In this document: positions 3,104 through 28,984 of the stretch, piece by piece | Layout of the letters: every line of letters starts with the position of its first letter | Position numbering within the stretch: the first letter of the stretch is position 1 | Source: Candidatus Poseidoniaceae archaeon | GTDB lineage: Archaea > Thermoplasmatota > Poseidoniia > Poseidoniales > Poseidoniaceae | DNA: 32,000 nucleotides | NCBI GenBank assembly: GCA_943789275.1 | Contig: CALSTM010000001.1 | Coordinates: forward strand, 270,001-302,000 | Direction of reading: 5' to 3' | Position numbers and translations under genes: made by a program | Notes under the pieces: model-generated | Told to the model about the DNA's origin: nothing | What the model saw: the letters and a program-made list of their open reading frames with translations, nothing else | The model's database searches: none

Positions 3104-4215
3104 TCAATCAACCATTCATCCATGTATTGTTCAATGATTTCGTTGGTGATGGTTGAGGTCGAGTTCACAACATCTGAATGGTAGAGGTAACCGTTCGTTT
3201 CCGGTAGATCGTTTCCTTCGATTACCGAATACATTGAGTTGTATACTGGCATGTTGATGTTGACTTCTGGTGAAGTGATGTATTGAATGAACAAGCGAGC
3301 AGCATCGACTTCAGCAGCACCGTGTATTACACCAGTGTACTCAACTTGGTGAAACGATGATTTTGGTAGTACGAGTGAGGTCGAGTGTGTGTAGTTCTCC
3401 GCAAAAAAGGCTTCAACTCCAGGAGAGTGACAGTAGGACACCGTCATGTATGCTCCACCGATGTAACCTTCCGTGTATTCTCCATAACCTCCTGTGTAAT
3501 AGGTCGTGTACGATTCAGTCCAACCTGATGTGAAGATTGCTCCGTTGTCTGCAATTGCCTTCCACCATGTGGACATGTTGCCTTGTTCAGCATTTGTTTC
3601 ATCCGTGAAATAGTCGTAAGTCGCTACTAAAAATGCTCGACCAGGAGATGAAGTGATAGGCGAGGGAATGGCTAATTTCCCGTTCCATTCAGGTTCAGTG
3701 AGGTCCCAAAGGCTTGTTGGAACTGAAATATTCGAGGCCAACAATGCATCTTCATCATAATTGAGACAGACATCGCCTTCATCGAACGGTAATGCCATCT
3801 CACCATCGTAGAAATCTCTCGATGATTGTGTCAAGTTTTCTGGTGTTGCGTTGTGTTCAATCAACAAGCAGTTTTCGAGAGCAGTTGGGAGGTACGTGTT
3901 GTCGAGACCCAACATGAGGTCTGCCTGTGGAGCCATTTGTGTCAGCATCATTTGATCCAAGATTCCACCGGCATCATCCGTTCGAATAACTTCAACTTGA
4001 ATACCCGTCTGATTGACGAACTGTTCGATAAGTTCATTAGAATAACCTTGGAAAATGTCGTAGGTTAATATTTTCAGTGTTCCATCAGATTCTCGCACCT
4101 GTACTTCTGAGGCGCAGGCGTTAACGCTCTCGAGTTCTGATAATTGTTCATCGCTGAGGCAGCCGCTTAGTGAGCTGAACAGCAGCAGTGTGAGGGTAAA
4201 TGCAATGGCTTTCAT
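3082..4215 (-). CDS. thiB: ABC transporter substrate-binding lipoprotein, ThiB/TbpA-family-like
   Basis: N-terminal signal with a lipobox (LLLFSSLSG-C). The 377-aa periplasmic-binding-protein-like sequence sits immediately upstream of the fused permease and short ATPase. An acidic, W/Y-rich mature domain is typical of marine SBPs. Confidence 0.7.
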   Translation of the reverse strand: MKAIAFTLTLLLFSSLSGCLSDEQLSELESVNACASEVQVRESDGTLKILTYDIFQGYSNELIEQFVNQTGIQVEVIRTDDAGGILDQMMLTQMAPQADLMLGLDNTYLPTALENCLLIEHNATPENLTQSSRDFYDGEMALPFDEGDVCLNYDEDALLASNISVPTSLWDLTEPEWNGKLAIPSPITSSPGRAFLVATYDYFTDETNAEQGNMSTWWKAIADNGAIFTSGWTESYTTYYTGGYGEYTEGYIGGAYMTVSYCHSPGVEAFFAENYTHSTSLVLPKSSFHQVEYTGVIHGAAEVDAARLFIQYITSPEVNINMPVYNSMYSVIEGNDLPETNGYLYHSDVVNSTSTITNEIIEQYMDEWLIEWQKATQ

Positions 4216-4217
4216 GG

Positions 4218-5078
4218 TCAGGCATCCTTGAGAATTGCGGTTAATTGGTGGGTGCGGTCTATCAATTCCAATGGGTTGTGTGCGACGATGTACATCGTTG
4301 GTTCCCAGCCAAAATCGCCTTCGTCAAGCAAGACATCAAATCGAGAGGTTCCTGGTTCAATTTTCGCTTTTGGTGCCAATGCGAATGAATATCCAAGTTG
4401 CTCACAGGCTTTTCGAACCGCAGCAGTATCGACGCTGTTGTGCTGAGTTGGTGGGCGGATATTCAGTACAGAAGTCTTGCTTGGCTCGGTGTTGTGGATG
4501 TCAATCAAGAGCTTGGCCAGATGCTTCGAGGCTCCAAAACTCGGGGTTTCATGGTGGCGAAGTACACCACCAACCATCGTAATTCTCCCCGGGAATGCTG
4601 CCACATCGTCAATTGAAGTTGCGCCAGCATTACACGAAGCAATGTTGAGCCCAACTGCGGGAATAGATTGCTCAATACGGCGTGCATCAAGTCGCCCTGC
4701 TGCCCATTCAAGCCGACGTAACAGTGCACGTTGCTCTTGTCCTGCGTCCAAATCTAATCCGGTAAGGGTTTTATCAAATCGAAGTGTATTGTTGCCGTTG
4801 AGTTGGAATTCGACGATTAGACGTTGTCGAAGGACATGACATCCTGGGCCGAGTGTTGACAATGCTTGTGATAATTCATTTCCCCATCCATCAATCGTTG
4901 CCTCATCTGCACTTGCATTGAGTCGAATCGGTGGCTTTTGCATTTGCCGTGAAATCGTGCTTTGAGTCGAACCGAGGACTTCAGCGATCTCAGTCTGCGA
5001 CCATCCATTGGTGCGAAGGTCCTTGGCTACGTGTTGCTGCAATCTGCCGATCCACTTGTCTCCTACTTGTCCGAGCAT
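4218..5078 (-). CDS. thiR: ThiR-like transcriptional regulator: N-terminal HTH + C-terminal ThiN (thiamine-phosphate synthase-like) domain
   Basis: HTH segment NGWSQTEIAEVLGSTQSTISRQM, followed by a ThiN-like domain (IPAVGLNIASC...VAAFPGRI...FGASKHLAKLL...VLNIR). Its stop lies 2 nt from the start of the binding-protein gene, so it is probably co-transcribed with the transporter. Confidence 0.7.
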   Translation of the reverse strand: MLGQVGDKWIGRLQQHVAKDLRTNGWSQTEIAEVLGSTQSTISRQMQKPPIRLNASADEATIDGWGNELSQALSTLGPGCHVLRQRLIVEFQLNGNNTLRFDKTLTGLDLDAGQEQRALLRRLEWAAGRLDARRIEQSIPAVGLNIASCNAGATSIDDVAAFPGRITMVGGVLRHHETPSFGASKHLAKLLIDIHNTEPSKTSVLNIRPPTQHNSVDTAAVRKACEQLGYSFALAPKAKIEPGTSRFDVLLDEGDFGWEPTMYIVAHNPLELIDRTHQLTAILKDA

Positions 5079-16063: not shown

Positions 16064-16084
16064 CATTCGGAAAGTTGTATTTTA

Positions 16085-16157
16085 CGCCGATTGAGGGGTT
16101 CGAACCCTCGACCTTGGGATTAACAGTCCCACGCTCCACCAGCTAAGCTAAATCGGC
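16085..16157 (-). tRNA. tRNA-Asn (anticodon GTT), 73 nt, no encoded CCA, no intron
   Basis: Hand-folded cloverleaf: acceptor GCCGATT/AATCGGC, D-stem GCTT/GAGC, anticodon stem TGGGA/TCCCA with loop CTGTTAA, T-arm GAGGG-TTCGAAC-CCCTC, discriminator G. Confidence 0.9.
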
Positions 16158-16192
16158 ATCGTTGGCGAACCGCCTCCCCTTTATGACGGCTT

Positions 16193-17536
16193 CTATTGTT
16201 CAGACTCGTCGACGGTCCTGATGAGTCGCCGAAACGGTGCTGATTTTTGGTCGCTAATGCGCAGTGCATGGTTGAGTTTCGTGATGTGCTCCGAGCTTAA
16301 TGGCTCTTCATGATGGACTGTAATCCATTTGTCACCCGCAGTGATGGCTTCATTTTTCCGTGCAGTTAGGATAAATCCGACAGCATGCAGTATTTCGTCC
16401 TCCATTGAGAAGCGCCCTGCACCCAGCTCACGTGCAACCTCAGCAAGTGCCATCGCATCGATCGATTGTACAAAACCTGATTGTGAAGAAAGGAATTCTG
16501 TCGAGCGCTGAGACTTGGGGAGGACAGATTCGGGGTCAAGGGCAAGTTTGGTTGCAACTGCAATTTCAGTGCCTTGTTGTACGCACATTTTGACAAATGT
16601 TTCCAACGCTTGACCGTTATCGAGAACTCGGGCAATCCTGCTCTTTCCCTCTTCAAGCGTTGCTGTCTTTCCGGTGAGGTGCAATAATTGTCCGCCTTGG
16701 AGCATCACCAACTCTCGTGTGTCCCCCGAACCATGACCTTGGAGTACGAGTATACTCCCTGTAACTTCCAGAGCGTTACCAATATGCGTTCCAATCGGTT
16801 CGTTCATGTCTGTGACTTGAGCAATAGTTTTGATTCCCAGACCGTTGGCAGTACGAACCATTGATTCAGCCAATTGGACCGCATCATGTTCTGTTTTCAT
16901 AAATGCTGCTCGACCGCATTTGACATCAAGAACCAGTGCATTCAAGCCCTCAGCCGCCTTTTTAGAGACAATGGATGCGGTAATGAGCGGTATACTGTCC
17001 ACGGTATCCGTGACATCGCGTATTGCATAGAGCAGACCATCAGCGGGAGCGATTGAATCGTTTTGTGCTGCAATGCAACAGCCAACACTTTCAACAGTCT
17101 TGGACATTTTTTCGGGAGAAAGATTGCAATTGAACCCGGGAATGGATTCGAGCTTGTCAATGGTTCCTCCAGTATGACCCAAGCCGCGACCGGCAAGCAT
17201 CGGGACACGAACTCCACATGCGGCAAGAGCTGGAGCAAGTATGAGTGACATCTTGTCACCGACTCCACCTGTACTGTGCTTGTCGCAGACATTTGAATCA
17301 CCTCGCCAAGTGAGTACGGCTCCTGAATTCATCATTCCTGCGGTGAGGGCTGTCGTCTCTTCAACTGAAATGCCATGCGAATGAACACATTTCAACCAGA
17401 CTTCGATAAGTTCAACGGGTAGTGTACGTCGTGCGACTCCATCGATGAAAGCGTTTAAATCTCCAAGGACCATTTTCTCACCGCTACGAACAGCCTCGCA
17501 CATTCGCTGGATGAGTGTATGACTCATGTCGCTCAC
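16193..17536 (-). CDS. deoA: Thymidine / pyrimidine-nucleoside phosphorylase family protein
   Basis: The DKHSTGGVGDK motif and the glycosyltransferase family 3 layout. At 447 aa it matches bacterial-type TP/PyNP rather than the ~500-aa archaeal AMP phosphorylase with its extra N-terminal domain. The GTG at 17536 overlaps the upstream stop by 4 nt; the first ATG is at 17527. Confidence 0.85.
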   Translation of the reverse strand: MSDMSHTLIQRMCEAVRSGEKMVLGDLNAFIDGVARRTLPVELIEVWLKCVHSHGISVEETTALTAGMMNSGAVLTWRGDSNVCDKHSTGGVGDKMSLILAPALAACGVRVPMLAGRGLGHTGGTIDKLESIPGFNCNLSPEKMSKTVESVGCCIAAQNDSIAPADGLLYAIRDVTDTVDSIPLITASIVSKKAAEGLNALVLDVKCGRAAFMKTEHDAVQLAESMVRTANGLGIKTIAQVTDMNEPIGTHIGNALEVTGSILVLQGHGSGDTRELVMLQGGQLLHLTGKTATLEEGKSRIARVLDNGQALETFVKMCVQQGTEIAVATKLALDPESVLPKSQRSTEFLSSQSGFVQSIDAMALAEVARELGAGRFSMEDEILHAVGFILTARKNEAITAGDKWITVHHEEPLSSEHITKLNHALRISDQKSAPFRRLIRTVDESEQ

Positions 17537-18495
17537 TTCTCTTCTGCGAGGCCGATTTCAACGAGGCGTTGGTGGAGATAATCACCAGCCGTAATGGATT
17601 GGTAGTTGACTTCCCCTCCGGTCATTTCAACGAATTCGGGGCGAGGCGTGAGGTCAACTTCATTTCGGGGATGAACAAACATTGGCATTGAGAAACGCCG
17701 CTCACTTGAATTTTCAGGGTTGACGACTCGGTGTGTTGTTGATTTGAATAAGCCATTTGTCAAGTTTTGGAGCATGTCTCCAGAATCGACAATAATATTG
17801 CTCGCATCACCCTCAACTTGAATCCAACTTCCGTCGTGGTCCATGACTTCAAGCCCATCAGCAGTTGCGGTCACCAAAAGCGTGATGAAATTGATATCTT
17901 CATGTGCAGCGGAGCGTACGGCGCCTTTCGGGACGTCATCACCAAGTGGGGGATAGTGTATGATTCGCATGATTGTATTTCCATCTTCAGCCATTGAACC
18001 CAACCAATTCGAAGGCTTGTTGAGGTAAAGACTGCACGACTGCAGAAGGTTTTTCGAAAGAGATTCCATTTTCGTGTACAGCCCATCAATGACTGCTTTG
18101 AAACCAGTTACATGTTGGTCTGGCCATACATTGGGGACATAGGTCGGCGTTTTACCAGTGGTCGGGTGGCTACGTCCTGTCTGCCAGAATTCCTTGAGGT
18201 CAGGTGCAGGATTGTTCTTTGCATGTTCAATGCCAAAGGCAGTGTAGCCTCTTTGATGAGAAATTTCGGGTTGCAGGTATGAGCGCTTCACCTCGTCGTT
18301 AAGCGAGAAGAACTCGTCGCCTTGCTGATAGGAATCGTCGATGGATTCCATGGGTATTCCGTGGTTTTTCAAGGCAAAAAAGCCAATATCCTTCAGTGAG
18401 TCTCCAACTGCTTTGATGAAGCCGATTCGACGTTCTTCATCTTGGCTAAGGTAGTCTGCGTAGTCGACTACCGGGATACTGCGCATCCAATCCAC
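17533..18495 (-). CDS. 2-oxoglutarate/Fe(II)-dependent oxygenase (isopenicillin-N-synthase-like family)
   Basis: An N-terminal DIOX_N-like region, the facial triad H-x-D (AAHEDINFITLL) plus a distal His (TTHRV), and the 2OG-binding R-x-S (RRFSMPMF). 320 aa. Confidence 0.85.
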   Translation of the reverse strand: MDWMRSIPVVDYADYLSQDEERRIGFIKAVGDSLKDIGFFALKNHGIPMESIDDSYQQGDEFFSLNDEVKRSYLQPEISHQRGYTAFGIEHAKNNPAPDLKEFWQTGRSHPTTGKTPTYVPNVWPDQHVTGFKAVIDGLYTKMESLSKNLLQSCSLYLNKPSNWLGSMAEDGNTIMRIIHYPPLGDDVPKGAVRSAAHEDINFITLLVTATADGLEVMDHDGSWIQVEGDASNIIVDSGDMLQNLTNGLFKSTTHRVVNPENSSERRFSMPMFVHPRNEVDLTPRPEFVEMTGGEVNYQSITAGDYLHQRLVEIGLAEEK

Positions 18496-18496
18496 C

Positions 18497-19255
18497 TCAA
18501 TTCATGTTGGAACGAACCTTGGAAAGGAGTCTCAACATTTCCCAGTAAATCCAGATGACGGTAACGAGTAGCCCAAAAGCTCCCCACCATTCGCCGACCT
18601 TCGGGGTTTGCTGTTTAATTCCAGATTCGATAAAATTGAAATCGAGAATCAAATTGGCACTTGCAACACCAAGAATGAATACCGTGACAAGAATGCCAAT
18701 AGGTCCATTTGAGTGCAAGAACGGAATTTGGAGTGAGCCTGGAATCAAACTGAGGATGAAGGATGAGATGTACAACAAGAATACGCCGAGTGTGAGACTG
18801 ATGACAATTCGTTGAAACATTGGTGTTGCTTTGATGATTCGAGTCGCATACAAACCGTACATACCTCCAACGAGGCAGAGCGTACCGAGTCCGGCTTGGA
18901 ACACGATGCCTGAATACATACTCTCAAAATAAAGCGAAATACCACCAACAAATGCTCCTTCGAAAATGGCGTATGTCATCATGAGGGGTACTGGATTTTT
19001 TGGGCGCATGAAGATGAGTATCATTGCTGTAATAAATCCGCCAAGCATTCCGCCCATCCATGCCATAAATGCAATGCCAATGTCGATTGTCAGGGCAGCA
19101 TATACCACAATTGCTGCAATCAGAAGGGTAGTTCCGAACAGAATCCCAATCTTCTGCATTGCACCTTCATAGGACATTGATTCATAGCCCTCGATGTTGT
19201 TCCAAAAATTGTTTGAAAGGACAGGATTACTCGATGTGTAGGCCATAGTGCTCAT
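18497..19255 (-). CDS. Bax-inhibitor-1 / YccA-like integral membrane protein (BaxI_1-type)
   Basis: Seven predicted TM helices and an N-terminal SSNPVLS motif typical of the prokaryotic BI-1-like family. I chose the start at ATG 19253-19255 (MSTMAYTSSNPVL). The longer ORF to 19351 would overlap the preceding gene by 58 nt. Confidence 0.7.
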   Translation of the reverse strand: MSTMAYTSSNPVLSNNFWNNIEGYESMSYEGAMQKIGILFGTTLLIAAIVVYAALTIDIGIAFMAWMGGMLGGFITAMILIFMRPKNPVPLMMTYAIFEGAFVGGISLYFESMYSGIVFQAGLGTLCLVGGMYGLYATRIIKATPMFQRIVISLTLGVFLLYISSFILSLIPGSLQIPFLHSNGPIGILVTVFILGVASANLILDFNFIESGIKQQTPKVGEWWGAFGLLVTVIWIYWEMLRLLSKVRSNMN

Positions 19256-19293
19256 GCCAAGGACGAGTAGGTCCCTTGTCAATCTTGTGCTGT

Positions 19294-22200
19294 TCAAGAG
19301 TGTTCTTCGACTTGTTGTTGATAGTATGCGGCAAGTTGGTCCATTGGCCATCCCTGATCAAGATATTTTTGGATCGTCTCTTCAGACCATCCTGGGCAAC
19401 GAGCTAAATCTTCAGGTGACAGACCTGTACTCGCAGCCTCATCACCGCTTCCATCGAGGACAGGCATTTGCCAATTTCCATCGTCGATTTCACCGTTTGC
19501 TAATGCATCGAGATTTTGACTTTCGAGGGTGATGAGTTCCTTGATTTCTTCACCTTCCGATTCGATGTTTCGGAGGATGAGGAATGCGCCTGCGGCAAGG
19601 ACAAGACCTCCAAGCATGGCGACGAACATCATGGTCGTTCCAAGATTGGAACTGGTATCGGCACTTGGCGTGGCAATTGAGTTGCGCTGCTCTGTTGAGC
19701 ATCCATCGTCGCTTACCGGAACGTTTGCGGGTGTGTCGGGGCATTTGTCATCTCGATTGATGACTCCATCTCCATCGTCGTCGAGCAGTTCTGTATCAAT
19801 CACTGAGGTGTTGTCATTCGGAATGACGCCGGCCAAATCGCATCCGAGCGTTTCGGATTCGTTGACGCCATCACCGTCTGCATCGGCCAGCAGCAATGCG
19901 TCTGAAGGTGAGACATCTTCCACAGATGGGTCTAAAGCGGTTGCTTGAGCCCATGTGACTTCGATCATATCGGGGATACAATCTCCGTCGGTATCCGTAT
20001 TGGTAGCATGGCTTCCGAATGTGTATTCGAGGCTGTTGATGAGGCCATCGCCATCTGCATCGTGATCTCCTTCGAGGATATTGAAACTTGGAAGTGTTCG
20101 AGTCGTACGATTGAGGCCATTGGCTACTTCCCAGTAATCCGGCAACCCATCGTTATCGGTATCGGTCACATTGTCCGTTCGAATCCAATCTCTGTGCCAT
20201 CCGGCCATGAACGGAGCAGTCACTTCGCTGCTGGATAGGATTAACCCCATTTCACGGTTTCGTGTTGGTGCGGAATCTCCCCAGTTGATGGAGGAAATGA
20301 GTACATGTTCACCGTCGACAATGACACCTTTATTGTGAAGTTTTGACACTTCATCATCTTCGCTCATCACAATAGCGTTCACATCGTATCCTAATGAGGA
20401 ATTCCAGTCTTCATTGAAAGTGTCAATGACTTCTTGAATATCTTTGTCGAGGTACGCTCCGTTGAGGATAAGTCGGATACGAACATCCTGCTGTGCAGCA
20501 GCTTCTAAAGCGCTAACAATCGGATTATCTCCCCAACCCCAGCTCCATTCAACGTCGAGGTACTGAAGCGAGAGAAGAATTTCTTCATCGGCTTGTTCAA
20601 TCATCCAAACAATACCATCGACGCAGGTGTCAGGGCAAGTAATCAGTCGACCACTGACATCTGTAGTGATGTTGTCAGCAGCGGTTGCGTTGGTAATTGA
20701 TTTCAGTGCATCAAGTGACCATCCCGAAGGTGCAGAGTTTGCATTGACTTGCGTGATGTATGTTCGGCTGAGAGATTCATCGTATGAGATCTGTTCCAGT
20801 ACTTGCATGGCGAGGTCTGAGTTTTCAATGATGACTCCCCATTCTGAGTTTCCTCTGTCATCAGGTGCAGGTTGAGACGAACTCTTCCAGTTGCCCGAAC
20901 TCATCCATACACTCGTGTTATCTCGTACGGCCACTTTGCTGTGGATGTATGTGTATGGCTCGTCACTCTGTCCACCGAACCAGAGCGTTGTGATTCCAGC
21001 GGTAGCCAACAGACCTGCAACGCCAAGTTGGTTGTTCTTGTCGTAGTTGTTCCACCAGTACTCCGCAGTGTTGAGGACAACGGTGACGTCAACGCCGCGG
21101 TTATGGGCTTCAATGAGTGCCTGTACCAGGTTTGGTTGCTCGATTTGGTACAGGTGAACATGAAGTGTTTCAGATGCGCCGTCAATCCAGTTCAACAAGT
21201 CAACAAGTCCTTCTTGTGGGCCGATGAGTGGAGTGACTGTACTGATGCCACTGAATTCAGTTGGACCGCAGAATGTGCTGGCTCCAAGCCTGCCCCAGCG
21301 GTGTTGCCAATCCAATGCCAGGTCGGTATCAGGTAAGTTTCCACAACCATCTCCTCGATGGTAAACCAACAGGGAGATGCTGGAAACTGGTTCAACCAGA
21401 CTGATACCACTCCATCCTGCGATGTCAACTGGCCCGTTGCCATACACGAAGGTATCCGCAAGCATCCCTGACGGGGTCATGATGTGCACAGCGGCACCGG
21501 AATCGGGAAGTGTAAATCCAGATGGACTGAGTGCTTCATCAAAGCCAACTCCAACTCCATCTTCATAGACCGATAGCCCACTTGCGTCTGCTGCAAGAAG
21601 AACCGAACTGTTCGCAGGAATACTCACATCACCAATTTGGTAATTGGTAGCCTCGTTCGCTGAATTGACCATTGAGAGTGTCCAGCCGTTCATGTATGCG
21701 AGACTGTCGCCGATGTTGGTGATTTCAATGAATTCAGTGTTGGCTGAAATATCTGTAGAACCTTCTGGCATGAATCTGCTGAATACGATGTCATCGGCCT
21801 CTGCAAAGAGACTTGCATCAGGCTCTGCAGCGCCTGGTGTGGGCCACAAGAGTGTTTGCCAACCGGATTGGTCTTGGCTCGGGCCAACGGTTTGGCAATC
21901 GCTAACGATACTCCACTGAGCCATATCGACCACGGTCCCATCCGGATTTGAAAGCGTGAACTGGTCAGAAAGGCCAGAGAGAACATCATCGTCCATGAGG
22001 AGCACAGCCCGCTCTTGTGGGGCAAGAACCATGCTGCTTTGGTTCCACATTGATGTGCTGCGTAAGAAGCGCCGGTCTTCGCCAGCAGTATCGATTCGCC
22101 AACGGCTGATGTTGAGGTCTTGCGTTCCGTTGTTCATCACTTCAATCCAATCTTCAACAGGTGTGACGGAGTCATCGTTGCAGTAGGCGAGTGCTTCGGT

Positions 22201-24195
22201 AAGTACCAAGTCATTCGATTCTGAGTATGCCGCCCATACCGGATTCATTTCACCAGGTGTTGACCATGCGGATTGTATCCAATCGGTTCCGTTCGATGCG
22301 GCAGTGCCCATTGGTCCTGCACCAGCATGTGTGCTGTTCGGCGCGATGAGTGATTCACCTTCAACGGTCGATGACCAAGAGATGGTATCAACCATGTCAC
22401 CGTTTCCGTCAACCATAATGATTGTATCCGGGGTTGTGTGCTTCAGATAGAAACTGGTTGTACCGTTGAGTGCAATAAGGGCAACTTCACCAGGTTGAAT
22501 GACGGATGTTGATTGCAATGGCATGTTGAATTGATGCAGTGTCAGCGAACGGCCTGCTGCTTGGAACTTCCAACCTCCGACATCCAAAGCCATAGTACCG
22601 TTGTTGTAGATTTCAATCCACTCGCCGAGAGGCCATTGTTGTGAATCGCTTCCAACAGCATCGGGGAAGACCTCAGTAAATATGGCAACACCAGTGGAGG
22701 GTGCTTCAACTGGGTCCGGTTGACCGGGTGTCATCCACGTCGAAGGCACCCATGGGTCTGCAGCCAATTCTGCAGGTACGAGAGAGATGTTTTGGCCGTA
22801 ATGTGTGGCATACCAAGCGGAATCGACAACCGCACCGGTGTCATCTCGAAGCATAATTTGATTGTAGTAATCCCAAAGTTCAGTGTCCCCGGAGAACTGA
22901 ACGAGGCGACGCTCTCCGGCATCGATGGAAGTCGACCCTTGTGTTTGGTTGAACACCAAAGTTCCCGGGTCAAGAATCGTGACATTGCCCATCCCATCGA
23001 TGATTGACCAACCGTTGAGGTCAACGGTCGAAGTGCCTGTGTTCAGCAGTTCGATCCATTCGCCATCAGGGAAAGCAGAACCATCTGAACTGCTGTTGGA
23101 TAGAATTTCAGCAAATTCGATTGGCGACGGCGTGTTTGCGATGAGTTCGAAAGCGAGAGGGTTGCTTGAATTGAGGGTAGGATAGGCTGCATAGACCCAA
23201 AACGGAGAGGTTGATGATTCAACCATTGAGAATCCTGCTTCGGTATCGGTCCACGAAACCTGTTGGGCTTTGCTTCCATTTGGCCACAAGAGTGTAAGAG
23301 TTTCAACACCGTTGTTGAGGACGCCGGAGTTTCCTGAGCCGTTTACTGCAATGATTCGAGTCTCACCAGGTAGAATGATGTTTTCTGAAAGGGTCTGTGA
23401 GAAGCCGACCAAGTGCATTGCATTGAAATCGAGTTTGTTTCCAGCTGCATCTTCAATCGACCAACCGTTGAGGTCGATGTTGTTCGAGCCAGAGTTGAGC
23501 ACTTCAATCCATTCGCCACCCGGCCAAATTGCATTGTCCTCAGATGGCCAAGGGTTCGACATGACTTCATGGATGATGAGGTCCGAAGGAATGAGTGTTG
23601 GACCAGGTGTTGTGCTGCCACCAGAGTTGATACCACCAGGGGTTAGTCCGCTGGTTGCAGTCCAGTCTGCAGTTGGAGTACCGTTGACTTCTTCATAACT
23701 GACTCCGGAAGCAGCGCTTGACGACCAAGTGGCTTGGTCCAGTTGGGCCCCAGCATCGGTGTAAAGGGTAATGATGTCGTTCGTATTTGCGAAGTAAAAG
23801 GCCGAGGTTGGAAGTCCGTTACGTGCGACAACCATGTATTCATCAGGCTCGAGTTCCCAACTCGATGAGTTTGAAGCATCGTAGTCAACAATGCTTGCTG
23901 AATCAAAGTAGAGTGTTTTTGACGCCTTGTTCGTCAAGTACCAACCGAGCACATCCACTGTTGATGTTCCTGAGTTGTGAATCTCCATCCATTCCCCACC
24001 AGGCCATGTTGCGTTGTCAGCTCCGCTTGGATTTGGAAGTACTTCATTGAGGCAAATATCACCGCTGCAAGCAAGCGAACGTGCCGAGGTAGAATCGATG
24101 TTTTCAGTCTCATTAAGCGTTGACACACCCATCGGCAAAGTCGTCGAAAGTACCATCAAAGCAGCGAGGCAAAAGGAGCGGAGTACAAGATTCAT
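19294..24195 (-). CDS. Giant (1633 aa) surface-anchored protein: signal peptide, 6 lamin-tail domains, dual-HKD phospholipase-D-fold domain, TSP3 Ca-binding repeats, C-terminal TM, 91-aa cytoplasmic tail
   Basis: Signal peptide MNLVLRSFCLAALMVLSTTLPMG. There are six LTD cores (e.g. WPGGEWIEVLNSGSNNIDLNGWSI). HKD motifs are YIHSKVAVRD...SSGNW (His codon 20941-20943) and LHNKGVIVDG...SSINW (His codon 20335-20337). D-x-D-x-D-G loops follow, then the TM segment TTMMFVAMLGGLVLAAGAFLIL. A GGTGG SD-like site precedes the ATG, and there are many N-x-S/T sequons. Confidence 0.85.
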   Translation of the reverse strand: MNLVLRSFCLAALMVLSTTLPMGVSTLNETENIDSTSARSLACSGDICLNEVLPNPSGADNATWPGGEWMEIHNSGTSTVDVLGWYLTNKASKTLYFDSASIVDYDASNSSSWELEPDEYMVVARNGLPTSAFYFANTNDIITLYTDAGAQLDQATWSSSAASGVSYEEVNGTPTADWTATSGLTPGGINSGGSTTPGPTLIPSDLIIHEVMSNPWPSEDNAIWPGGEWIEVLNSGSNNIDLNGWSIEDAAGNKLDFNAMHLVGFSQTLSENIILPGETRIIAVNGSGNSGVLNNGVETLTLLWPNGSKAQQVSWTDTEAGFSMVESSTSPFWVYAAYPTLNSSNPLAFELIANTPSPIEFAEILSNSSSDGSAFPDGEWIELLNTGTSTVDLNGWSIIDGMGNVTILDPGTLVFNQTQGSTSIDAGERRLVQFSGDTELWDYYNQIMLRDDTGAVVDSAWYATHYGQNISLVPAELAADPWVPSTWMTPGQPDPVEAPSTGVAIFTEVFPDAVGSDSQQWPLGEWIEIYNNGTMALDVGGWKFQAAGRSLTLHQFNMPLQSTSVIQPGEVALIALNGTTSFYLKHTTPDTIIMVDGNGDMVDTISWSSTVEGESLIAPNSTHAGAGPMGTAASNGTDWIQSAWSTPGEMNPVWAAYSESNDLVLTEALAYCNDDSVTPVEDWIEVMNNGTQDLNISRWRIDTAGEDRRFLRSTSMWNQSSMVLAPQERAVLLMDDDVLSGLSDQFTLSNPDGTVVDMAQWSIVSDCQTVGPSQDQSGWQTLLWPTPGAAEPDASLFAEADDIVFSRFMPEGSTDISANTEFIEITNIGDSLAYMNGWTLSMVNSANEATNYQIGDVSIPANSSVLLAADASGLSVYEDGVGVGFDEALSPSGFTLPDSGAAVHIMTPSGMLADTFVYGNGPVDIAGWSGISLVEPVSSISLLVYHRGDGCGNLPDTDLALDWQHRWGRLGASTFCGPTEFSGISTVTPLIGPQEGLVDLLNWIDGASETLHVHLYQIEQPNLVQALIEAHNRGVDVTVVLNTAEYWWNNYDKNNQLGVAGLLATAGITTLWFGGQSDEPYTYIHSKVAVRDNTSVWMSSGNWKSSSQPAPDDRGNSEWGVIIENSDLAMQVLEQISYDESLSRTYITQVNANSAPSGWSLDALKSITNATAADNITTDVSGRLITCPDTCVDGIVWMIEQADEEILLSLQYLDVEWSWGWGDNPIVSALEAAAQQDVRIRLILNGAYLDKDIQEVIDTFNEDWNSSLGYDVNAIVMSEDDEVSKLHNKGVIVDGEHVLISSINWGDSAPTRNREMGLILSSSEVTAPFMAGWHRDWIRTDNVTDTDNDGLPDYWEVANGLNRTTRTLPSFNILEGDHDADGDGLINSLEYTFGSHATNTDTDGDCIPDMIEVTWAQATALDPSVEDVSPSDALLLADADGDGVNESETLGCDLAGVIPNDNTSVIDTELLDDDGDGVINRDDKCPDTPANVPVSDDGCSTEQRNSIATPSADTSSNLGTTMMFVAMLGGLVLAAGAFLILRNIESEGEEIKELITLESQNLDALANGEIDDGNWQMPVLDGSGDEAASTGLSPEDLARCPGWSEETIQKYLDQGWPMDQLAAYYQQQVEEHS
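19711..20175 (-). repeat. Thrombospondin type-3-like Asp-rich calcium-binding repeats (5 loops) forming a membrane-proximal stalk
   Basis: DTDNDGLPD, DADGDGLIN, DTDGDCIPD, DADGDGVNE and DDDGDGVINRDDKCPD, read from the translation (aa 1341-1495). Confidence 0.7.
20191..21243 (-). other. Phospholipase-D-superfamily catalytic region with two HKD motifs (aa ~985-1335 of the giant protein)
   Basis: H1085-S-K-x4-D and H1287-N-K-x4-D, each followed ~12 residues later by the (G/S)-x-N-W element that completes PLD/Nuc-type half-sites. Confidence 0.8.
21421..24060 (-). repeat. Array of six lamin-tail-domain (LTD) repeats, each ~120-125 aa, within the giant protein (aa ~46-925)
   Basis: Six recurrences of the [FW]P-x-GEWIE-[ILV]-x-N-x-G-x4-[DN]-[LVI]-x-GW core, at aa 64, 224, 375, 521, 680 (degenerate: VEDWIEVMNNG) and 820 (degenerate: TEFIEITNIG). 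Each is followed by a beta-rich segment ending in a W-x-(S/T) motif. Confidence 0.75.
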
Positions 24196-24275
24196 GGTGC
24201 CACCAACAGCCTGTGGGCTGAGTCTAAGGGCATATCACTTTCCCCTAAACATTCACGGAGTGATGGTTGTAAGGC

Positions 24276-25787
24276 TCAAAGGAAACCTGCGTTATCGACA
24301 AGGTTCTCGAACAGCAAATAGGTGATTGGAACAAGAATGACACCCATGGCGTGGCTTCGGCGTATTCCAAGACGTGGTGGGAGAAGTCCGAGCATGGTTC
24401 CGACGATGAGCACGGCAAGTCCGATGAACCCAGTACTCACAAAGACCAGTGCTGCAACGAATATGATGACGCTCATGATCATCTGTTGCAACGGAATTGC
24501 AGCGTGCAGTCGAAGCATACCTTTGCCAACGTATCGCATGATTGGCATTGCCATAAGACCAGCAGCCAATGTGATGGCGAGTAACCGGATGAAATCTGCA
24601 GTTGGCTCAGTGTTGCTCCATGTGTCAACAGGATACATGGCTTTGAGAGCCAGCGTTGCCCCGGAGCGTGAACGGCCGATGATGTAAAGGAAACCAAGAA
24701 CACAAACGGTGACGGCGGTGTTCACTGCCGAAAGGATGGCAATAATTTCCAAATCTTGTTTGGTTTGTGGACCTTCAACACCCTCATCGGATTCGGCTTT
24801 GGCGATTTCCAGGAGTTCGTCGTCAGAGAGTTCAGTTAATCGGCGAGTTTCCCAATCCATTCCAAATCCTTGTTTCCCTTGGAGTTTAGCTGCGACGTTG
24901 CGCCCACCCATCACGAGGACAGTTGCTTGTGATGCGGTCATTCCAGGCAATACACCCATCGATGCGCCTGCTACTCCGGACCAAAAGCAAGGAACCAAGA
25001 GAGGTCGTGCAGGAGGCAAGTCCCAGTTTTCTTTTTGAGGCGGCAGGTGTGAGGTTGTTGCATAGATGTCCAGCAAGTTCGCAATTCCGAACAATCCAGC
25101 AAGACTTGGTAGGAGAAGACTTGCACCTGGCATATCGATTGGAGAACGTCCGGGTAGAGCATGTGGGCCGATAATGGTCCAACCAAACAGGCCAGTCAAC
25201 AAGAAGAACGCTGTGGCTGAAAAGAAACCTGCAAATCTTGAATCTTCGCCCAGTCGCTTTCCAGTTGCCACTTGAATCCATTTCGGCCAGTCGAGTCGTG
25301 TCGTTTCCGTCATCAAAAGCAGTGCTGAGATGGTAAGGAGGATGAACGGAAGAAAGGTGCGAAGTTGAGAGTACCATCCGAGTTCTGGCCCGAATGCAAT
25401 TCTTGCGAGAACAATCAACGGCAAAGAAAGGAACAAACCGAGCTGCGAGCCACGTGCAGACCACGCTACACCACGCGCCGCATTACCTGACAAAAGCATG
25501 CGATGGCCGGGCAGTAAAGATAACGCCTGGTCCGCATCTGGTGCTCCCATAAGCGCTGAGGGAATATAATTCAAGAATGTGTGAACCGTACCTGTCGATA
25601 CAATGATTCCAGCAACGGCTGAAAGCGGGATTCCAAGGCTCAGCAGCCCCGGTGCCAAGGCAAGTAGGATAAGTGCGACATTGTTGACGTGGAAACCGGG
25701 GATGATTCCGGTAAGCGTCCCCATCGCAACACCCCCAAACAGAGCAGCGAGCATCCAACTCAGTTCGTACATGTAGGCATCAAGCAT
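24276..25787 (-). CDS. TctA-family (DUF112) tripartite-tricarboxylate-transporter-like large permease, stand-alone
   Basis: 503-aa polytopic protein with the family's G-x3-G-x2-PG-x-(G/H) N-terminal motif (GTLTGIIPGFHV), repeated later (GVLPGMTAS). An acidic cytoplasmic insert (ELSDDELLEIAKAESDEGVEG) separates the two halves. No TctB or TctC gene is adjacent. Confidence 0.7.
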   Translation of the reverse strand: MLDAYMYELSWMLAALFGGVAMGTLTGIIPGFHVNNVALILLALAPGLLSLGIPLSAVAGIIVSTGTVHTFLNYIPSALMGAPDADQALSLLPGHRMLLSGNAARGVAWSARGSQLGLFLSLPLIVLARIAFGPELGWYSQLRTFLPFILLTISALLLMTETTRLDWPKWIQVATGKRLGEDSRFAGFFSATAFFLLTGLFGWTIIGPHALPGRSPIDMPGASLLLPSLAGLFGIANLLDIYATTSHLPPQKENWDLPPARPLLVPCFWSGVAGASMGVLPGMTASQATVLVMGGRNVAAKLQGKQGFGMDWETRRLTELSDDELLEIAKAESDEGVEGPQTKQDLEIIAILSAVNTAVTVCVLGFLYIIGRSRSGATLALKAMYPVDTWSNTEPTADFIRLLAITLAAGLMAMPIMRYVGKGMLRLHAAIPLQQMIMSVIIFVAALVFVSTGFIGLAVLIVGTMLGLLPPRLGIRRSHAMGVILVPITYLLFENLVDNAGFL

Positions 25788-25799
25788 GAAACGTCCTCC

Positions 25800-27557
25800 C
25801 TAGTTTCCACTGTTTGGACCTGTGCCGTTTTCCACTTCCTCGCGGTCAGTGATTCCGTCACCGTCCGTATCTTCGGTGTTGGAATTGAAGCCTGCCGCAT
25901 CTTCATAACTGTCGGCAAGGCGGTCGCCATCATCGTCTTGCGCATCCGCTTCATCGAGGGAATAAACGATGGATAATTGGCTCGGATGTTCAATCTGACG
26001 AAGTCTACCCTCCCAAGTGAGCGATTGATTCTCATGGATTGAATCGGTTCCAATAGCGTTGAGTTGTACATTGAGTTTAATGGATTGGTCAGACCCCGGG
26101 CGTTCAAGGTACCATCCATCGTCCTTGAGTGCGGCTTTACCGTCGATAAGAACAAACTGGTTTTTGGAATAGCCCCATTGTGTTGCGCCATCGTCCCAAA
26201 GGAGGGTCGAAGGAGGTGGTGGATTCCCGGTGAGGTTGTAGGAGTTCACCATGAGGCGGATTCGCATGTCTTCATCGTCCCATGCTACGGTGACATCAGC
26301 AACAACGCCTTGACCAGATTCAATCCAGTCGGTACGGGGTCCGGGGAATGTCATGGCGATTGTCGTCTGTCCAAACGTGTAGGTTTGGCTGTCGACAAAG
26401 TAACCTTCAGTGTCCAAGGGTTCGAAAGCGTATTTCATGTAGGTGTTAATGGTGTAATGCATGTATGGGTTTTCAAGCATTGAGGCAGGGTCAGCAGACA
26501 GCATGGCCTGCATTGACATTGCAGACATAGGATTGACGAGGTTTTGTCCCATGCCTTGGTTTGCATCGATGCACCACGTGCTCCTGTCGTCGCTCCACAT
26601 TAATCGTCCTTCAGCATCAAAAATGGAGTTATTGTAACTTCCATCAGCAGCGTTCTCGATATCTTCAGTTGTTGGGATAACGCAGATGGTATTGCCGCTG
26701 GGTCCGACCAGATCCCATACGCCGTCTTCGATGTGCAACGTTCCTGCGAGGATGACCTTACTGCCGGATTGGTAGCTCCATGTTGCTTCTGTAGCCCAAT
26801 CGAGACGATTGACGGGGGGTACATGGCTTCCATCGATGAGAATATCTGGCCCTTGAGTATGAAGCGCCCATCGGAGGCTCGTTTCTTGATAGGATAGAAT
26901 TCCACTGACTTCAATCTTCGAATCAGATTCAATCCACTTGCCGGTTGCCGATTGAATGAGCAGTTGCATTTGGTGAGCAGCGTTTCCTGGGTGGTCGGTA
27001 ATGTATGCGGAAGTGTAGACGGCATCTGGGCTTACAGATTTACTGATGAAACCGTTGACCGTCACTATTTTGCCAAGATAATCTGAAGGAGCAACTGCGA
27101 TGTCTGACAGCGAGACTCTCTCGAGAGTTGGTAAATCTTTAGCTTCCCAATACAACGCACCAGAGCCTGTTGCCTGCATGAAGAATCGTCCGTTATAGTC
27201 GACAACATCACCCATGGCCGTCACATTCGTACCTATGGGGGGGATTGTCCCGGTTGAATACCATCGAACTTGGATCACTCCAGTCTCGTCTTCGATGACC
27301 AAGTCGACACGGTCTTCACCGCTGCCGTATCGGTCTTCAATCCACGAAATGACTTTTCCTTCAACCAATACCACTTCGTTCTTGTATTGCACGAGGTCTT
27401 CGATTTCGACCACTTGCGGTTCGCGAACCATAGCGTACCAGTTCAACGTAGCCACTAAGAATAACGAAAGAGCGAACATAACCCACAACTTTTGACCCCG
27501 TGTAGCCGGATTGTCATCGGTTATCTTGAGCATAATGTCCTTGAGAGCATCCGCCAT
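25800..27557 (-). CDS. N-terminally membrane-anchored extracellular protein with tandem OB-fold-like domains and a C-terminal TSP3-like Asp-rich tail
   Basis: Signal-anchor helix (LWVMFALSLFLVATLNWYAMV). At least two segments show an OB-fold-like strand pattern (VVLVEGKVISW...DLVIEDETGVIQVRW...GTNVTAMGDVVDYNGRF, and KIVTVNGFISK...AYITD...MQLLIQ...SKIEVSGILSY). The C-terminus is DDDGDRLAD...DTDGDGITD (25803-25955). The fold assignment is by eye only. Confidence 0.6.
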   Translation of the reverse strand: MADALKDIMLKITDDNPATRGQKLWVMFALSLFLVATLNWYAMVREPQVVEIEDLVQYKNEVVLVEGKVISWIEDRYGSGEDRVDLVIEDETGVIQVRWYSTGTIPPIGTNVTAMGDVVDYNGRFFMQATGSGALYWEAKDLPTLERVSLSDIAVAPSDYLGKIVTVNGFISKSVSPDAVYTSAYITDHPGNAAHQMQLLIQSATGKWIESDSKIEVSGILSYQETSLRWALHTQGPDILIDGSHVPPVNRLDWATEATWSYQSGSKVILAGTLHIEDGVWDLVGPSGNTICVIPTTEDIENAADGSYNNSIFDAEGRLMWSDDRSTWCIDANQGMGQNLVNPMSAMSMQAMLSADPASMLENPYMHYTINTYMKYAFEPLDTEGYFVDSQTYTFGQTTIAMTFPGPRTDWIESGQGVVADVTVAWDDEDMRIRLMVNSYNLTGNPPPPSTLLWDDGATQWGYSKNQFVLIDGKAALKDDGWYLERPGSDQSIKLNVQLNAIGTDSIHENQSLTWEGRLRQIEHPSQLSIVYSLDEADAQDDDGDRLADSYEDAAGFNSNTEDTDGDGITDREEVENGTGPNSGN

Positions 27558-27648
27558 ATTCGACTACACCAGTGCCCCGTGCTTAGGCATTGCCATGCTT
27601 CATTCTTATCCAGAAACCCACATTGTTCGCGATTTGAGCATGCGGGTT

Positions 27649-27656
27649 CTTTTTAA
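27649..27656 (+). promoter_or_regulatory. TATA-like box (CTTTTTAA) for the HD-domain gene; implies a leaderless or near-leaderless transcript starting near 27677
   Basis: An A/T-rich octamer overlaps the first in-frame ATG (27656). Three further ATGs lie at 27677, 27683 and 27689, at the distance expected for an archaeal TSS (~22-27 nt downstream of a TATA box). Confidence 0.3.
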
Positions 27657-27676
27657 TGGAAAAGCAGACCGGTCTT

Positions 27677-28984
27677 ATGGGGATGGCCATGCGAGACCGG
27701 GTGATTCGAGACGAAATTCACAAGGATATTTTCGTTCCTGCCGCTCACGCTAAAATAATTGACACCCGTGAATTCCAGCGTCTACGCTCGATTCAACAAC
27801 TGTCAACTTGTGAGTATGTTTTTCCTGCAGCCAACCACAATCGTTTTTCGCACTCTTTAGGGGCATACCACCTTGCTCGAACCCTTGTTGATTCGCTCAA
27901 CGATGTCCAGCCGGGTCTTGTTTCCGACGACGATGCAGAATTAATTCAACTTGCGGCTTTGTTGCACGATATTGGTCACCCACCTTTTTCACACCTTCTT
28001 GAATCACCGGAAGTTTTTGCAACATACCATTCGCATGAACACTGGGGCAGAGTTTTGCTTGAATCTGAAGACACTGAAGTAGGAATCGCTTTGCTCGAGG
28101 CACTCGGGCGTACTCGGCGCGACCGCCTTTTTGCCCTGCTTGACGGGGCGAAAGAGCACGAAGGTATCGCCATCCCGCCGTTCATGAAGGAAATAGTCTC
28201 CAGTCAACTTGACGTTGACCGCATGGATTACATGGTTCGTGACCAGGCAAATACCGGTGCGCAAATTGGTGGGTTTGATATTGCTCGAGTCATACGTGCA
28301 TTGCGAGTAAGTGATGACGGTCATTTTTTCGTGAAATCATGGGGACTTCCTGCGATTGAGGCCTACCTCGTGACTCGATACCATATGTACCATCAAGTCT
28401 ACTTCCATAAGGTCAACATGCTGACGCAGAATTACCTTGTCCGTATGCTCTCTCGTGCACGAGCATTGGCTCAAGAAGGTGAATTGACTCTCTCACCCTC
28501 TCTTGCGGATATGTTACTCAATTCGGATCTGGATGCCAAGGGCTATGCAGCGCTTAACGATGCACATGTCCGAGTTGCTTTACCGGATTGGGCCGAACAT
28601 GAAGATGCAACTTTATCTCACTATGCAATGCGTTTACTCTCACGCCGAGACTTCCATAAATCGTTGCGTATTGAAGGCTTGAGTACTGAAATGGTGACCG
28701 TTGTTTTACCTCGCTTACAGGCACTGGTTGCTGATGCTGGATTTGATCCGTCGATCGATGTCATCACCGCACGAATCTCGAAGCGTGGCTACATGCCGTA
28801 TGAGCAAGGCATTCTTCTGGAAGACGGGCGCGATGCTGCGGACCATTCACCGCTTGTTCGTTCGCTAACGCAACCAAACGAGAGGGCACTGATTTTTGTC
28901 CCTGATGCAATCCGTGACGAACTTGAACTCAGTGTTCGAGAATGGGTCAAACCTTCGCAATCCTCACTTGCCCAGTTTGAATGA
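27677..28984 (+). CDS. HD-domain phosphohydrolase, COG1078 / SAMHD1-like (putative dNTP triphosphohydrolase)
   Basis: The motifs FQRLRSIQQL, NRFSHSLGAYHLA, LLHDIGHPPFSH and LDVDRMDYMVRD are the hallmarks of the SAMHD1/EF1143-type HD family. The start is ambiguous (27656, 27677, 27683 or 27689). The family's usual N-terminus (x3-5-I-x-D-x-IH) favours the later ATGs. Confidence 0.85.
   Translation: MGMAMRDRVIRDEIHKDIFVPAAHAKIIDTREFQRLRSIQQLSTCEYVFPAANHNRFSHSLGAYHLARTLVDSLNDVQPGLVSDDDAELIQLAALLHDIGHPPFSHLLESPEVFATYHSHEHWGRVLLESEDTEVGIALLEALGRTRRDRLFALLDGAKEHEGIAIPPFMKEIVSSQLDVDRMDYMVRDQANTGAQIGGFDIARVIRALRVSDDGHFFVKSWGLPAIEAYLVTRYHMYHQVYFHKVNMLTQNYLVRMLSRARALAQEGELTLSPSLADMLLNSDLDAKGYAALNDAHVRVALPDWAEHEDATLSHYAMRLLSRRDFHKSLRIEGLSTEMVTVVLPRLQALVADAGFDPSIDVITARISKRGYMPYEQGILLEDGRDAADHSPLVRSLTQPNERALIFVPDAIRDELELSVREWVKPSQSSLAQFE

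Follow-up and report, generated by a model that had tools for sequence, protein, structure and literature searches.

A run of minus-strand genes in the genome of a Candidatus Poseidoniaceae archaeon has at its core a membrane-anchored OB-fold protein (the OB-anchor), a TctA-like permease, and a giant surface protein with a phospholipase D (PLD) domain. Judged from sequence, the case that these three serve the uptake of DNA is about evenly balanced. The stretch studied, called the window here, comprises 32,000 nucleotides (nt) of assembly GCA_943789275.1 (contig CALSTM010000001.1, positions 270,001-302,000), and coordinates are those of the window (Table 1). Bacterial ComEC combines an N-terminal OB/DUF4131 region, a competence channel, and a metallo-beta-lactamase nuclease, with helpers of the ComEA/EndA type. 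To our knowledge, archaea lack ComEC, and the sole lead on DNA import in these organisms is one genetic screen in a methanogen. The archaeal cluster would follow a ComEC-like, three-part logic built from unrelated families; by that comparison it is an analogue of ComEC and not a member of its family.

An initial annotation of this DNA had described six minus-strand open reading frames (ORFs) followed by a tRNA-Asn gene, with a divergent HD-domain gene at the other end. The gene order and coordinates are reproduced here, as are the spacers of 12, 80, 38, 1, and -4 nt, counted from the OB-anchor to thymidine phosphorylase (TP), the last being an overlap. For the BI-1-like gene, the longest ORF reaches 19351; the later start at 19255 yields the 38-nt gap, and the Pfam match runs from residue 42. 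The domain calls are likewise recovered by Pfam and NCBIfam except for the OB folds, which are backed by other evidence, described below.

The permease matches PF01970 (2e-43) and has about 10 to 11 transmembrane (TM) helices. It is homologous to the large membrane subunit of Salmonella TctABC. Unlike that system, it is accompanied by neither TctB nor TctC, whether in the window (Pfam scans of its ORFs) or near the TctA gene in loci L001-L109; its partner is a single-TM OB protein, and some of its relatives are fused to nucleases. Is it an orphan, as had been supposed? Nine contexts outside Poseidoniales, from unrelated archaea whose TctA homologues are 33-39% identical, were surveyed for a partner. 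In seven of them (L098, L099, L100, L102, L105, L106, and L107) the gene immediately before TctA, on the same strand, encodes a single-TM OB protein, the spacing ranging between an overlap of 8 nt and a gap of 141 nt; L101 and L103 (Methanomicrobia) have none. Each partner has a single TM helix at its N terminus and, after it, between one and several OB folds. "Orphan" is therefore the wrong description: the OB-anchor, 12 nt away in the window, is a conserved partner, and the two very probably form a functional pair. In one of the distant contexts (L098:10077-17339), the 1 to 7 kb after the pair hold thymidylate synthase, DHFR, and type IV pilus-like genes (two T2SSF proteins and a PilB-like ATPase). 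This neighborhood is a single case; pili are needed for methanogen transformation.

Gene fusions also bear on what the permease family does. Three independent clusters, P0360 (785 aa), P0362 (713 aa), and P0332 (663 aa), join TctA through extra TM helices to a staphylococcal nuclease (SNase) domain, and two of the three carry an Excalibur calcium-binding domain as well. One of these fusion clusters has 29 members across several contigs. Gene contexts were inspected for two of the nuclease fusions, P0332 and P0360, and in both an OB-fold gene precedes the fusion; in a further protein, P0297, an OB fold is inserted into a TctA loop. By the logic of domain fusion, the permease family works with an OB fold and an extracellular nuclease. 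No additional nucleases were found near TctA in L098, L099, or L108. A local hidden Markov model (HMM) of the TM+OB module gave no matches among 150 TctA representatives, a result explained by the predominance of Marine Group II sequences in the profile.

How close does this come to ComEC? Both combine an OB fold, a membrane conduit, and a nuclease, and the channel-nuclease fusion within ComEC is mimicked by the TctA-SNase fusions. The archaeal cluster differs from ComEC in having neither a competence domain (PF03772) nor a metallo-beta-lactamase domain by Pfam, in using a TctA-family membrane part, and in being made of separate polypeptides.

Genetic evidence comes from Methanococcus maripaludis, which was screened for transformation-defective mutants (Fonseca et al. 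2023, PMC10133366). In-frame deletion of either of two adjacent genes, MMJJ_13020 (OB, single TM) or MMJJ_13030 (TctA-like, 11 TM), abolished natural transformation, and both defects were complemented. Deleting the lipid-anchored, secreted thermonuclease MMJJ_16440 had the same effect, and the authors proposed the TctA-like protein as an archaeal DNA transporter. The TctA-like gene of Methanoculleus thermophilus is essential for transformation too, in a species with no clear homologue of MMJJ_13020 (PMC10133366); this fits the Methanomicrobia locus L103, which lacks an OB partner. The window resembles M. maripaludis in its adjacent genes for a single-TM OB protein and a PF01970 permease without TctB/TctC, and in having a membrane-anchored, extracellular nuclease-type protein as a third part. 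It differs in that its OB protein is 585 aa long with extra repeats and a TSP3 tail, and its nuclease-type protein is a PLD giant with six LTDs encoded beside the pair, whereas the methanogen enzyme is an SNase encoded elsewhere. A profile of TctA representatives of about 400 aa, aimed at the Methanococcus protein, retrieved DPANN homologues only. P0386, a homologue from Methanomicrobia (36% identity, E = 5.5e-30, in the search of TctA representatives), supplies no more than an indirect link to the tested methanogen genes. No literature was found linking this cluster or the OB/TctA pair to Poseidoniales.

To turn to the OB-anchor itself, hydropathy places a single TM helix at residues 24-42; after it come an ectodomain built of repeated OB-like beta-barrels and, at the C terminus, a TSP3 tail. 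The window protein has no Pfam OB match above threshold (PF01336, E = 0.21). Its orthologues and other TctA partners do match PF01336, above the Pfam cutoff in L098 and L105 and at about 1e-5 in L106 and L107. Residues 27-235, spanning the TM helix, OB1, and OB2, are colinear with the entire 218-aa partner of L098 (E = 4e-7). An AF2 model, of moderate quality owing to a shallow alignment, is a string of beta-barrels, and in Foldseek it gave 159 matches at E <= 1e-3, nearly all of them tandem-OB nucleic acid binders, including HIN-200, RPA70, Teb1, TEBP, LEF-3, SSB, and archaeal RPA. A sequence profile of the TM+OB module likewise matches the OB folds of XseA and RPA. Sub-threshold matches (13.8-21.2 bits, the cutoff being 31.6) to DUF4131, which we take to be the TM+OB module at the N terminus of ComEC, recur in the window protein, L082, L098, L102, and P0537; this likeness in sequence is suggestive only. 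Searches with the window OB-anchor, and equally with the window permease, were saturated by relatives of at least 75% identity and did not find distant homologues.

The AlphaFold model of the permease is confident (pLDDT 88, pTM 0.87), and Foldseek found no PDB relative for it at E <= 1e-3. With no solved structural relative, the fold cannot tell whether a polymer could pass. In Marine Group II, TctA proteins have on the cytoplasmic side an acidic loop, some 50 aa long (residues ~300-350), that is poorly modelled.

The third part, the 1,633-aa giant, comprises a signal or TM segment (residues 3-21), six LTDs, a PLD domain with two HKD motifs, TSP3, a C-terminal TM helix, and a cytoplasmic tail of about 92 aa; in Pfam, six stretches match LTD (2.3e-72) and two match PLDc_2 (4e-34), along with TSP3. 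With a signal predicted at the N terminus and a TM anchor at the C terminus, both from hydropathy, the catalytic domain is presumably held at the cell surface. At its end, the tail (19294-19572, residues 1542-1633) carries a motif rich in Trp and Tyr, PGWSEETIQKYLDQGWPMDQLAAYYQQQ, which matches no family and might serve to dock a partner in the cytoplasm or the membrane.

Is the PLD domain a nuclease or a lipase? Neither of the HxK(x)4D...S-x-N motifs (HSKVAVRD...SSGNW and HNKGVIVD...SSINW) varies among 17 orthologues from two lineages. Against the PDB, a profile of the orthologues finds Nuc (1.9e-13), Zucchini/PLD6 (2.4e-12), NucT (4.3e-10), and SpPLD (7e0m, 6.6e-9), then PLD3/4 at about 1e-3 and PLD1/2 above 0.01, with no Streptomyces PLD at E <= 1. 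The single window sequence matches Nuc at 3e-5, and Zucchini/PLD6 and NucT as well; in NCBIfam the nearest families are DrmC and NucT, both below cutoff. These comparisons support a predicted nuclease type over a lipid PLD. Like Nuc (pKM101), NucT (Helicobacter pylori), and Zucchini/PLD6, the domain has HKD motifs in Nuc-sized halves. Nuc is a homodimer, whereas the giant fuses two halves in one chain, set within a 1,633-aa LTD/TSP3 surface protein. NucT has been linked to the salvage of purines and to natural transformation (PMC5714352). Another point of comparison is Vibrio cholerae Xds, a surface-associated DNase with LTD, OB, and endonuclease/exonuclease/phosphatase (EEP) domains that degrades extracellular DNA (PMC6746945). 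Here too LTD and OB are combined with a surface phosphodiesterase, in one protein in the case of Xds. Unlike Xds, the giant carries PLD and no EEP domain (by Pfam) and six LTDs rather than one, and the OB folds sit on a separate, permease-paired protein.

Does gene order support a module? Scanning the TctA protein against GTDB species-representative genomes returned 80 loci, every one under the label Poseidoniaceae, Poseidonia, or something akin (Marine Group II), with TctA 79-99% identical. Wherever the Poseidoniaceae contig is long enough, the order is the same: HD, then OB, TctA, giant, BI-1, oxygenase, and TP, then guaA. The collinearity is just as strong in the flanking genes (the run g12-g24 reaches well outside the cluster), where hyp222, purE, and guaA lie beyond one end and HD, tRNA-Met, hyp310, hyp420, and hyp135 beyond the other, so conservation within the family reflects general collinearity; synteny across the 80 loci was therefore set aside as an argument for a module. 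No other gene of the cluster is nearly as well conserved as TctA, whose identity floor across Poseidoniaceae is 79%, against 52% for the OB-anchor and 48% for the giant.

A deeper comparison is more telling. In an exhaustive search of 50%-identity cluster representatives, P0241 (56%) was the sole full-length TctA relative above 40% identity, the rest lying at 39% or below. Metagenome contigs with P0241-like genes (L082-L096), labelled "Candidatus Thermoplasmatota archaeon" at NCBI, make up a second lineage, which would be a sister family within Poseidoniales. It keeps the order OB (32% identity), TctA (50%), giant (34%), and TP (47-50%), with TP directly after the giant, which again has six LTDs and two PLDc_2 domains. 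The OB orthologue is 528 aa long and lacks the TSP3 tail (sequences from L082, L090, and L091). Around these genes much has moved: four genes (5.6 kb) sit between HD and OB, the downstream genes differ, tRNA-Asn and guaA were not found there, and BI-1 and the oxygenase are not in the cluster (tblastn, L082-L096). As these four persist amid rearranged surroundings, the second lineage gives moderate grounds, at the level of sequence comparison, for a core of OB, TctA, giant, and TP without BI-1 and the oxygenase. The view of the cluster as a syntenic module thereby gains moderate support for the four genes kept together in the second lineage; collinearity in Poseidoniaceae does not discriminate, and BI-1 and the oxygenase drop out. 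Within the 5.6-kb insert of one second-lineage contig (L082:3659-5833) lies a 724-aa subtilase (Peptidase_S8) with a C-terminal SAP/HeH motif of DNA-binding type.

The last member of this core, TP, beats the curated equivalog cutoffs of NF004490 (441.3 bits against 269) and TIGR02644 (431 against 409), and it is kept in the cluster in both lineages. In Poseidoniaceae only, the cluster also holds an oxygenase gene that overlaps the TP start by 4 nt. Its best PDB matches are two uncharacterised proteins (3oox and 3on7), then the Neurospora thymine dioxygenase, thymine-7-hydroxylase (T7H; 5c3p), over the full length at 5.1e-33. When mapped on T7H (PMC4787775), 9 of 12 key residues are identical. 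The oxygenase keeps the Fe triad, R190, Y194, R286, S288, F292, E122, Y324, and R328, and departs at Y217 (Ile), N87 (Gln), and N294 (His). The kept residues are mostly common to the wider IPNS-like clade, so the resemblance is a lead and not an assignment. Action on thymine is an attractive idea because TP yields thymine; on these alignments it is a tentative one, on the doubtful side. TP and a T7H-like oxygenase could together form an archaeal route from thymidine through thymine to an oxidised pyrimidine. Fungal thymidine salvage proceeds by T7H and then isoorotate decarboxylase. The oxygenase is like that pathway in having the Neurospora enzyme as its closest characterised relative, and unlike it in the three changed residues and in that no isoorotate decarboxylase was seen in the window. 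We know of no description of such a pathway in archaea.

Two further genes belong less clearly. The BI-1-like gene is lineage specific, present in Poseidoniaceae loci, and nothing was found tying BI-1 to nucleic acids. The divergent HD protein matches 2o6i (EF1143 type, 3e-47) and SAMHD1 (1e-28) in the PDB and the HD and HD_assoc_2 families in Pfam. Given its distance from the cluster in the second lineage, this predicted deoxynucleoside triphosphate (dNTP) triphosphohydrolase can be tied to the cluster loosely.

How many transcription units are there? The initial annotation had remarked on very short spacers. Coding sequence fills about 96% of the window, and co-directional neighbors elsewhere in it, unrelated genes included, are spaced at anything between -31 and 100 nt; short gaps being the norm, the spacing in the cluster is no more than chance would give and carries no weight by itself. 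Upstream regions were inspected by eye for promoter-like boxes. One such box, ATATGCCCTTAGAC, lies in the 80-nt spacer between TctA and the giant and is kept in L002, L003, L009, L020, L022, L025, L027, and L037. Similar boxes stand at comparable distances before OB (AATGCCTAAGCAC, 27581-27595), GT4, GcvT, GcvP1, and tRNA-Met. The type, (G)CC(C)TTAG, CCTAAG, or TTTAAG, recurs about 30-40 nt before the start codons of likely first genes and may be a local TATA-like promoter element. The 12-, 1-, and -4-nt junctions leave no space for a promoter. Going by the boxes, this genome probably has at least two units, OB-TctA and giant-BI-1-oxygenase-TP, and the box in the 80-nt spacer speaks against a single six-gene unit. 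In the genus Poseidonia the gap between TctA and the giant is about 18-20 nt, and there a single unit is possible. The tRNA-Asn gene probably marks the end of the co-directional run as a separate transcription unit.

To briefly describe the mechanism that these parts suggest, the OB array outside the cell would hold extracellular DNA at the membrane, and the PLD domain of the giant would cut it or degrade one strand. The TctA-like protein, together with the TM helix of the OB protein, would pass single-stranded DNA or oligonucleotides inward. TP would then free thymine and deoxyribose-1-phosphate from DNA-derived thymidine, and in Poseidoniaceae only, the T7H-like oxygenase may oxidise thymine next. 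What the sequences show directly is the gene content, the OB-TctA pairing, the fusions, the intact catalytic motifs, and the class of fold; the need for such genes in DNA uptake comes from published work on methanogens, and we infer DNA binding, nuclease activity, the transported substrate, and the link to salvage alike. Capture, cleavage, and uptake had been proposed before, and the upstream half of that proposal is strengthened by the OB-TctA pairing, the fusions, the M. maripaludis genetics, and the nuclease-type PLD domain. The salvage end fares unevenly: TP is kept in the second lineage and the oxygenase is nearest to a thymine dioxygenase, but the oxygenase is missing from the cluster there. 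Membership of BI-1 is not upheld, the gene being absent from the second-lineage cluster and nothing tying it to the role.

Taken further, an OB anchor, a TctA-like permease, and a surface nuclease might be the general archaeal counterpart of ComEC, occurring as pairs or fusions from DPANN to Poseidoniales, and Marine Group II might have an enlarged version, with the six-LTD PLD nuclease, that takes up dissolved DNA and feeds the route from thymidine through thymine to oxidised pyrimidines. This wider proposal is possible and must be called speculative. If it holds, the fungal thymidine salvage pathway would have a first counterpart in archaea.

Several observations weigh against a role in DNA uptake and salvage. 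(i) The DNA transporter role of TctA is the hypothesis of one genetic study, in which an indirect requirement is possible (PMC10133366), and the tie of the window genes to MMJJ_13020 and MMJJ_13030 rests on Pfam family and architecture. (ii) No PLD gene adjoins TctA in any sampled context outside Poseidoniales, and a promoter-like box, seen by eye, precedes the giant, where an internal promoter is likely. (iii) HD, tRNA-Met, and hyp310 also stay nearby in the second lineage, so residual synteny may account for the core. (iv) The PLD clade includes a true phospholipase, SpPLD of Serratia, with nuclease-like loops. (v) The OB-anchor model is moderately confident (mean pLDDT 67). (vi) The OB-anchor (net charge -54) and the giant (-184) are strongly acidic, with an isoelectric point (pI) of about 4.1, which disfavours simple electrostatic binding of DNA. 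(vii) Tyr217 of T7H is Ile in the oxygenase, whose two nearest relatives are uncharacterised proteins. As to the charge, an ABC solute-binding protein at 3082-4215 is equally acidic (pI 4.05), so acidity is a general trait of surface proteins here; TSP3 and Excalibur, which bind calcium, point to binding through bridging cations.

What else could the genes do? The OB-anchor and TctA may be a unit by themselves, a transporter of small anions in which OB replaces TctB/TctC as a tethered binding or scaffold subunit, with carboxylates, nucleotides, or short oligonucleotides as substrate and the giant, BI-1, oxygenase, and TP as neighbors by inheritance. The TctA family are secondary transporters, and arCOG04469, a mostly stand-alone family, was guessed to carry carboxylates (Makarova et al., PMC5898192). 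The collinearity reaching far beyond the cluster in all 80 Poseidoniaceae loci, the short gaps throughout a 96%-coding window, the lack of a PLD gene beside TctA in sampled contexts outside Poseidoniales, and the box in the 80-nt spacer all agree with this account. It has to contend with the TctA-SNase fusions, which link the permease family to extracellular nucleases, with the need for both genes in M. maripaludis transformation (PMC10133366), with the persistence of OB, TctA, giant, and TP together in a lineage with three nearby rearrangements, and with the Poseidonia giant beginning some 18-20 nt after TctA. On balance it is rather unlikely.

The two remaining accounts concern the giant and the cluster as a whole. 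The giant could be a lipid-directed PLD or an adhesin acting on algal, bacterial, or vesicle membranes, in keeping with the proposed lipid- and protein-degrading lifestyle and unrelated to DNA. The PLD superfamily is functionally ambiguous, SpPLD, with its nuclease-like loops, matches at 6.6e-9, LTD and TSP3 also occur in adhesins and other surface hydrolases, and the LTD of Xds is dispensable for nuclease activity (PMC6746945). Yet all the better-scoring solved relatives (Nuc, Zucchini, and NucT) are nucleases, PLD1/2 and Streptomyces PLD trail or fail to appear, DrmC and NucT are nearest in NCBIfam, and the giant adjoins a pair tied to DNA uptake, so that this account is improbable. Still less plausible, and very improbable as it stands, is the original reading of all six genes as one operon module, BI-1 and oxygenase included, with TctA importing small hydrolysis products. 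The genes are co-directional with gaps of at most 80 nt, their full order holds in every Poseidoniaceae locus long enough, BI-1 and the oxygenase are 1 nt apart, and the oxygenase overlaps TP. Against this, L082-L096 keep the core without BI-1 and the oxygenase, synteny at the family level is nonspecific, a probable internal promoter precedes the giant, and nothing connects BI-1 to nucleic acids.

Table 1. Positions of the cluster genes, their domains, and related features (window coordinates unless a locus is named)
Feature	Position	Strand	Basis
OB-anchor, 585 aa	25800-27557	minus	ORF, hydropathy, AF2/Foldseek
TM + OB1 + OB2 ancestral module (OB-anchor residues 1-240), invariant "EP" motif	26838-27557	minus	alignment with partners from five unrelated loci
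TSP3 calcium-binding tail of OB-anchor	25803-25967	minus	Pfam TSP3_bac, 2.5e-5
TctA-like permease, 503 aa	24276-25787	minus	Pfam PF01970
80-nt TctA-giant spacer with conserved box ATATGCCCTTAGAC	24196-24275; box 24224-24238	minus	~40 nt before giant ATG
Giant surface protein, 1,633 aa	19294-24195	minus	Pfam, NCBIfam, hydropathy
LTD array (six)	21376-24078	minus	Pfam LTD, 2.3e-72
Predicted PLD catalytic domain, residues 940-1345	20161-21378	minus	alignment of 17 orthologues, profile vs PDB
C-terminal membrane anchor of giant, residues 1523-1541	19573-19629	minus	Kyte-Doolittle peak 2.49
BI-1-like membrane protein (BaxI_1)	18497-19255	minus	Pfam, 2e-63
2OG-Fe(II) oxygenase	17533-18495	minus	Pfam DIOX_N + 2OG-FeII_Oxy; PDB 5c3p
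Thymidine phosphorylase (TP), DeoA type	16193-17536	minus	NCBIfam NF004490
tRNA-Asn (GTT)	16084-16158	minus	ARAGORN
HD-domain protein, dNTP triphosphohydrolase type (EF1143/SAMHD1-like)	27656-28984	plus, divergent	PDB, Pfam
TctA fusion loci	L106:945-2936; L107:1889-4246; L108:10001-12358		domain fusion

Some features of the surroundings deserve mention. Beyond the tRNA-Asn gene, Poseidonia loci such as L020 (19723-21334) and L042 have an extra 1.5-2 kb before guaA, with small ORFs including one of 139 aa whose Cys/His motif is HNH-like and a 177-aa, Cys-rich protein. It may be a small element inserted next to the tRNA; the corresponding gap in the window is 20 nt and lacks it. Elsewhere in the window (675-5078), a minus-strand run encodes an ABC ATPase, a 598-aa protein without a Pfam match, a solute-binding protein, and a ThiN-type thiamine-phosphate synthase with HTH; this may be a locus for uptake of thiamine or a thiamine precursor.

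Overall, how DNA passes across the archaeal membrane is a standing question, and the comparison of this locus with its relatives independently adds to the methanogen lead: the pairing of OB and TctA in distant archaea, the fusions of the permease to nucleases and to OB folds, and the nuclease-type gene beside the pair in Poseidoniales. If the DNA uptake reading is true, it comes with a testable parts list, made up of natural variants from 80 species, a compact PLD domain, an OB ectodomain, and complementable methanogen mutants. Certain archaea that rank among the most abundant in surface seawater would then be equipped to capture and consume dissolved DNA, a large reservoir of phosphorus and nitrogen in organic form.

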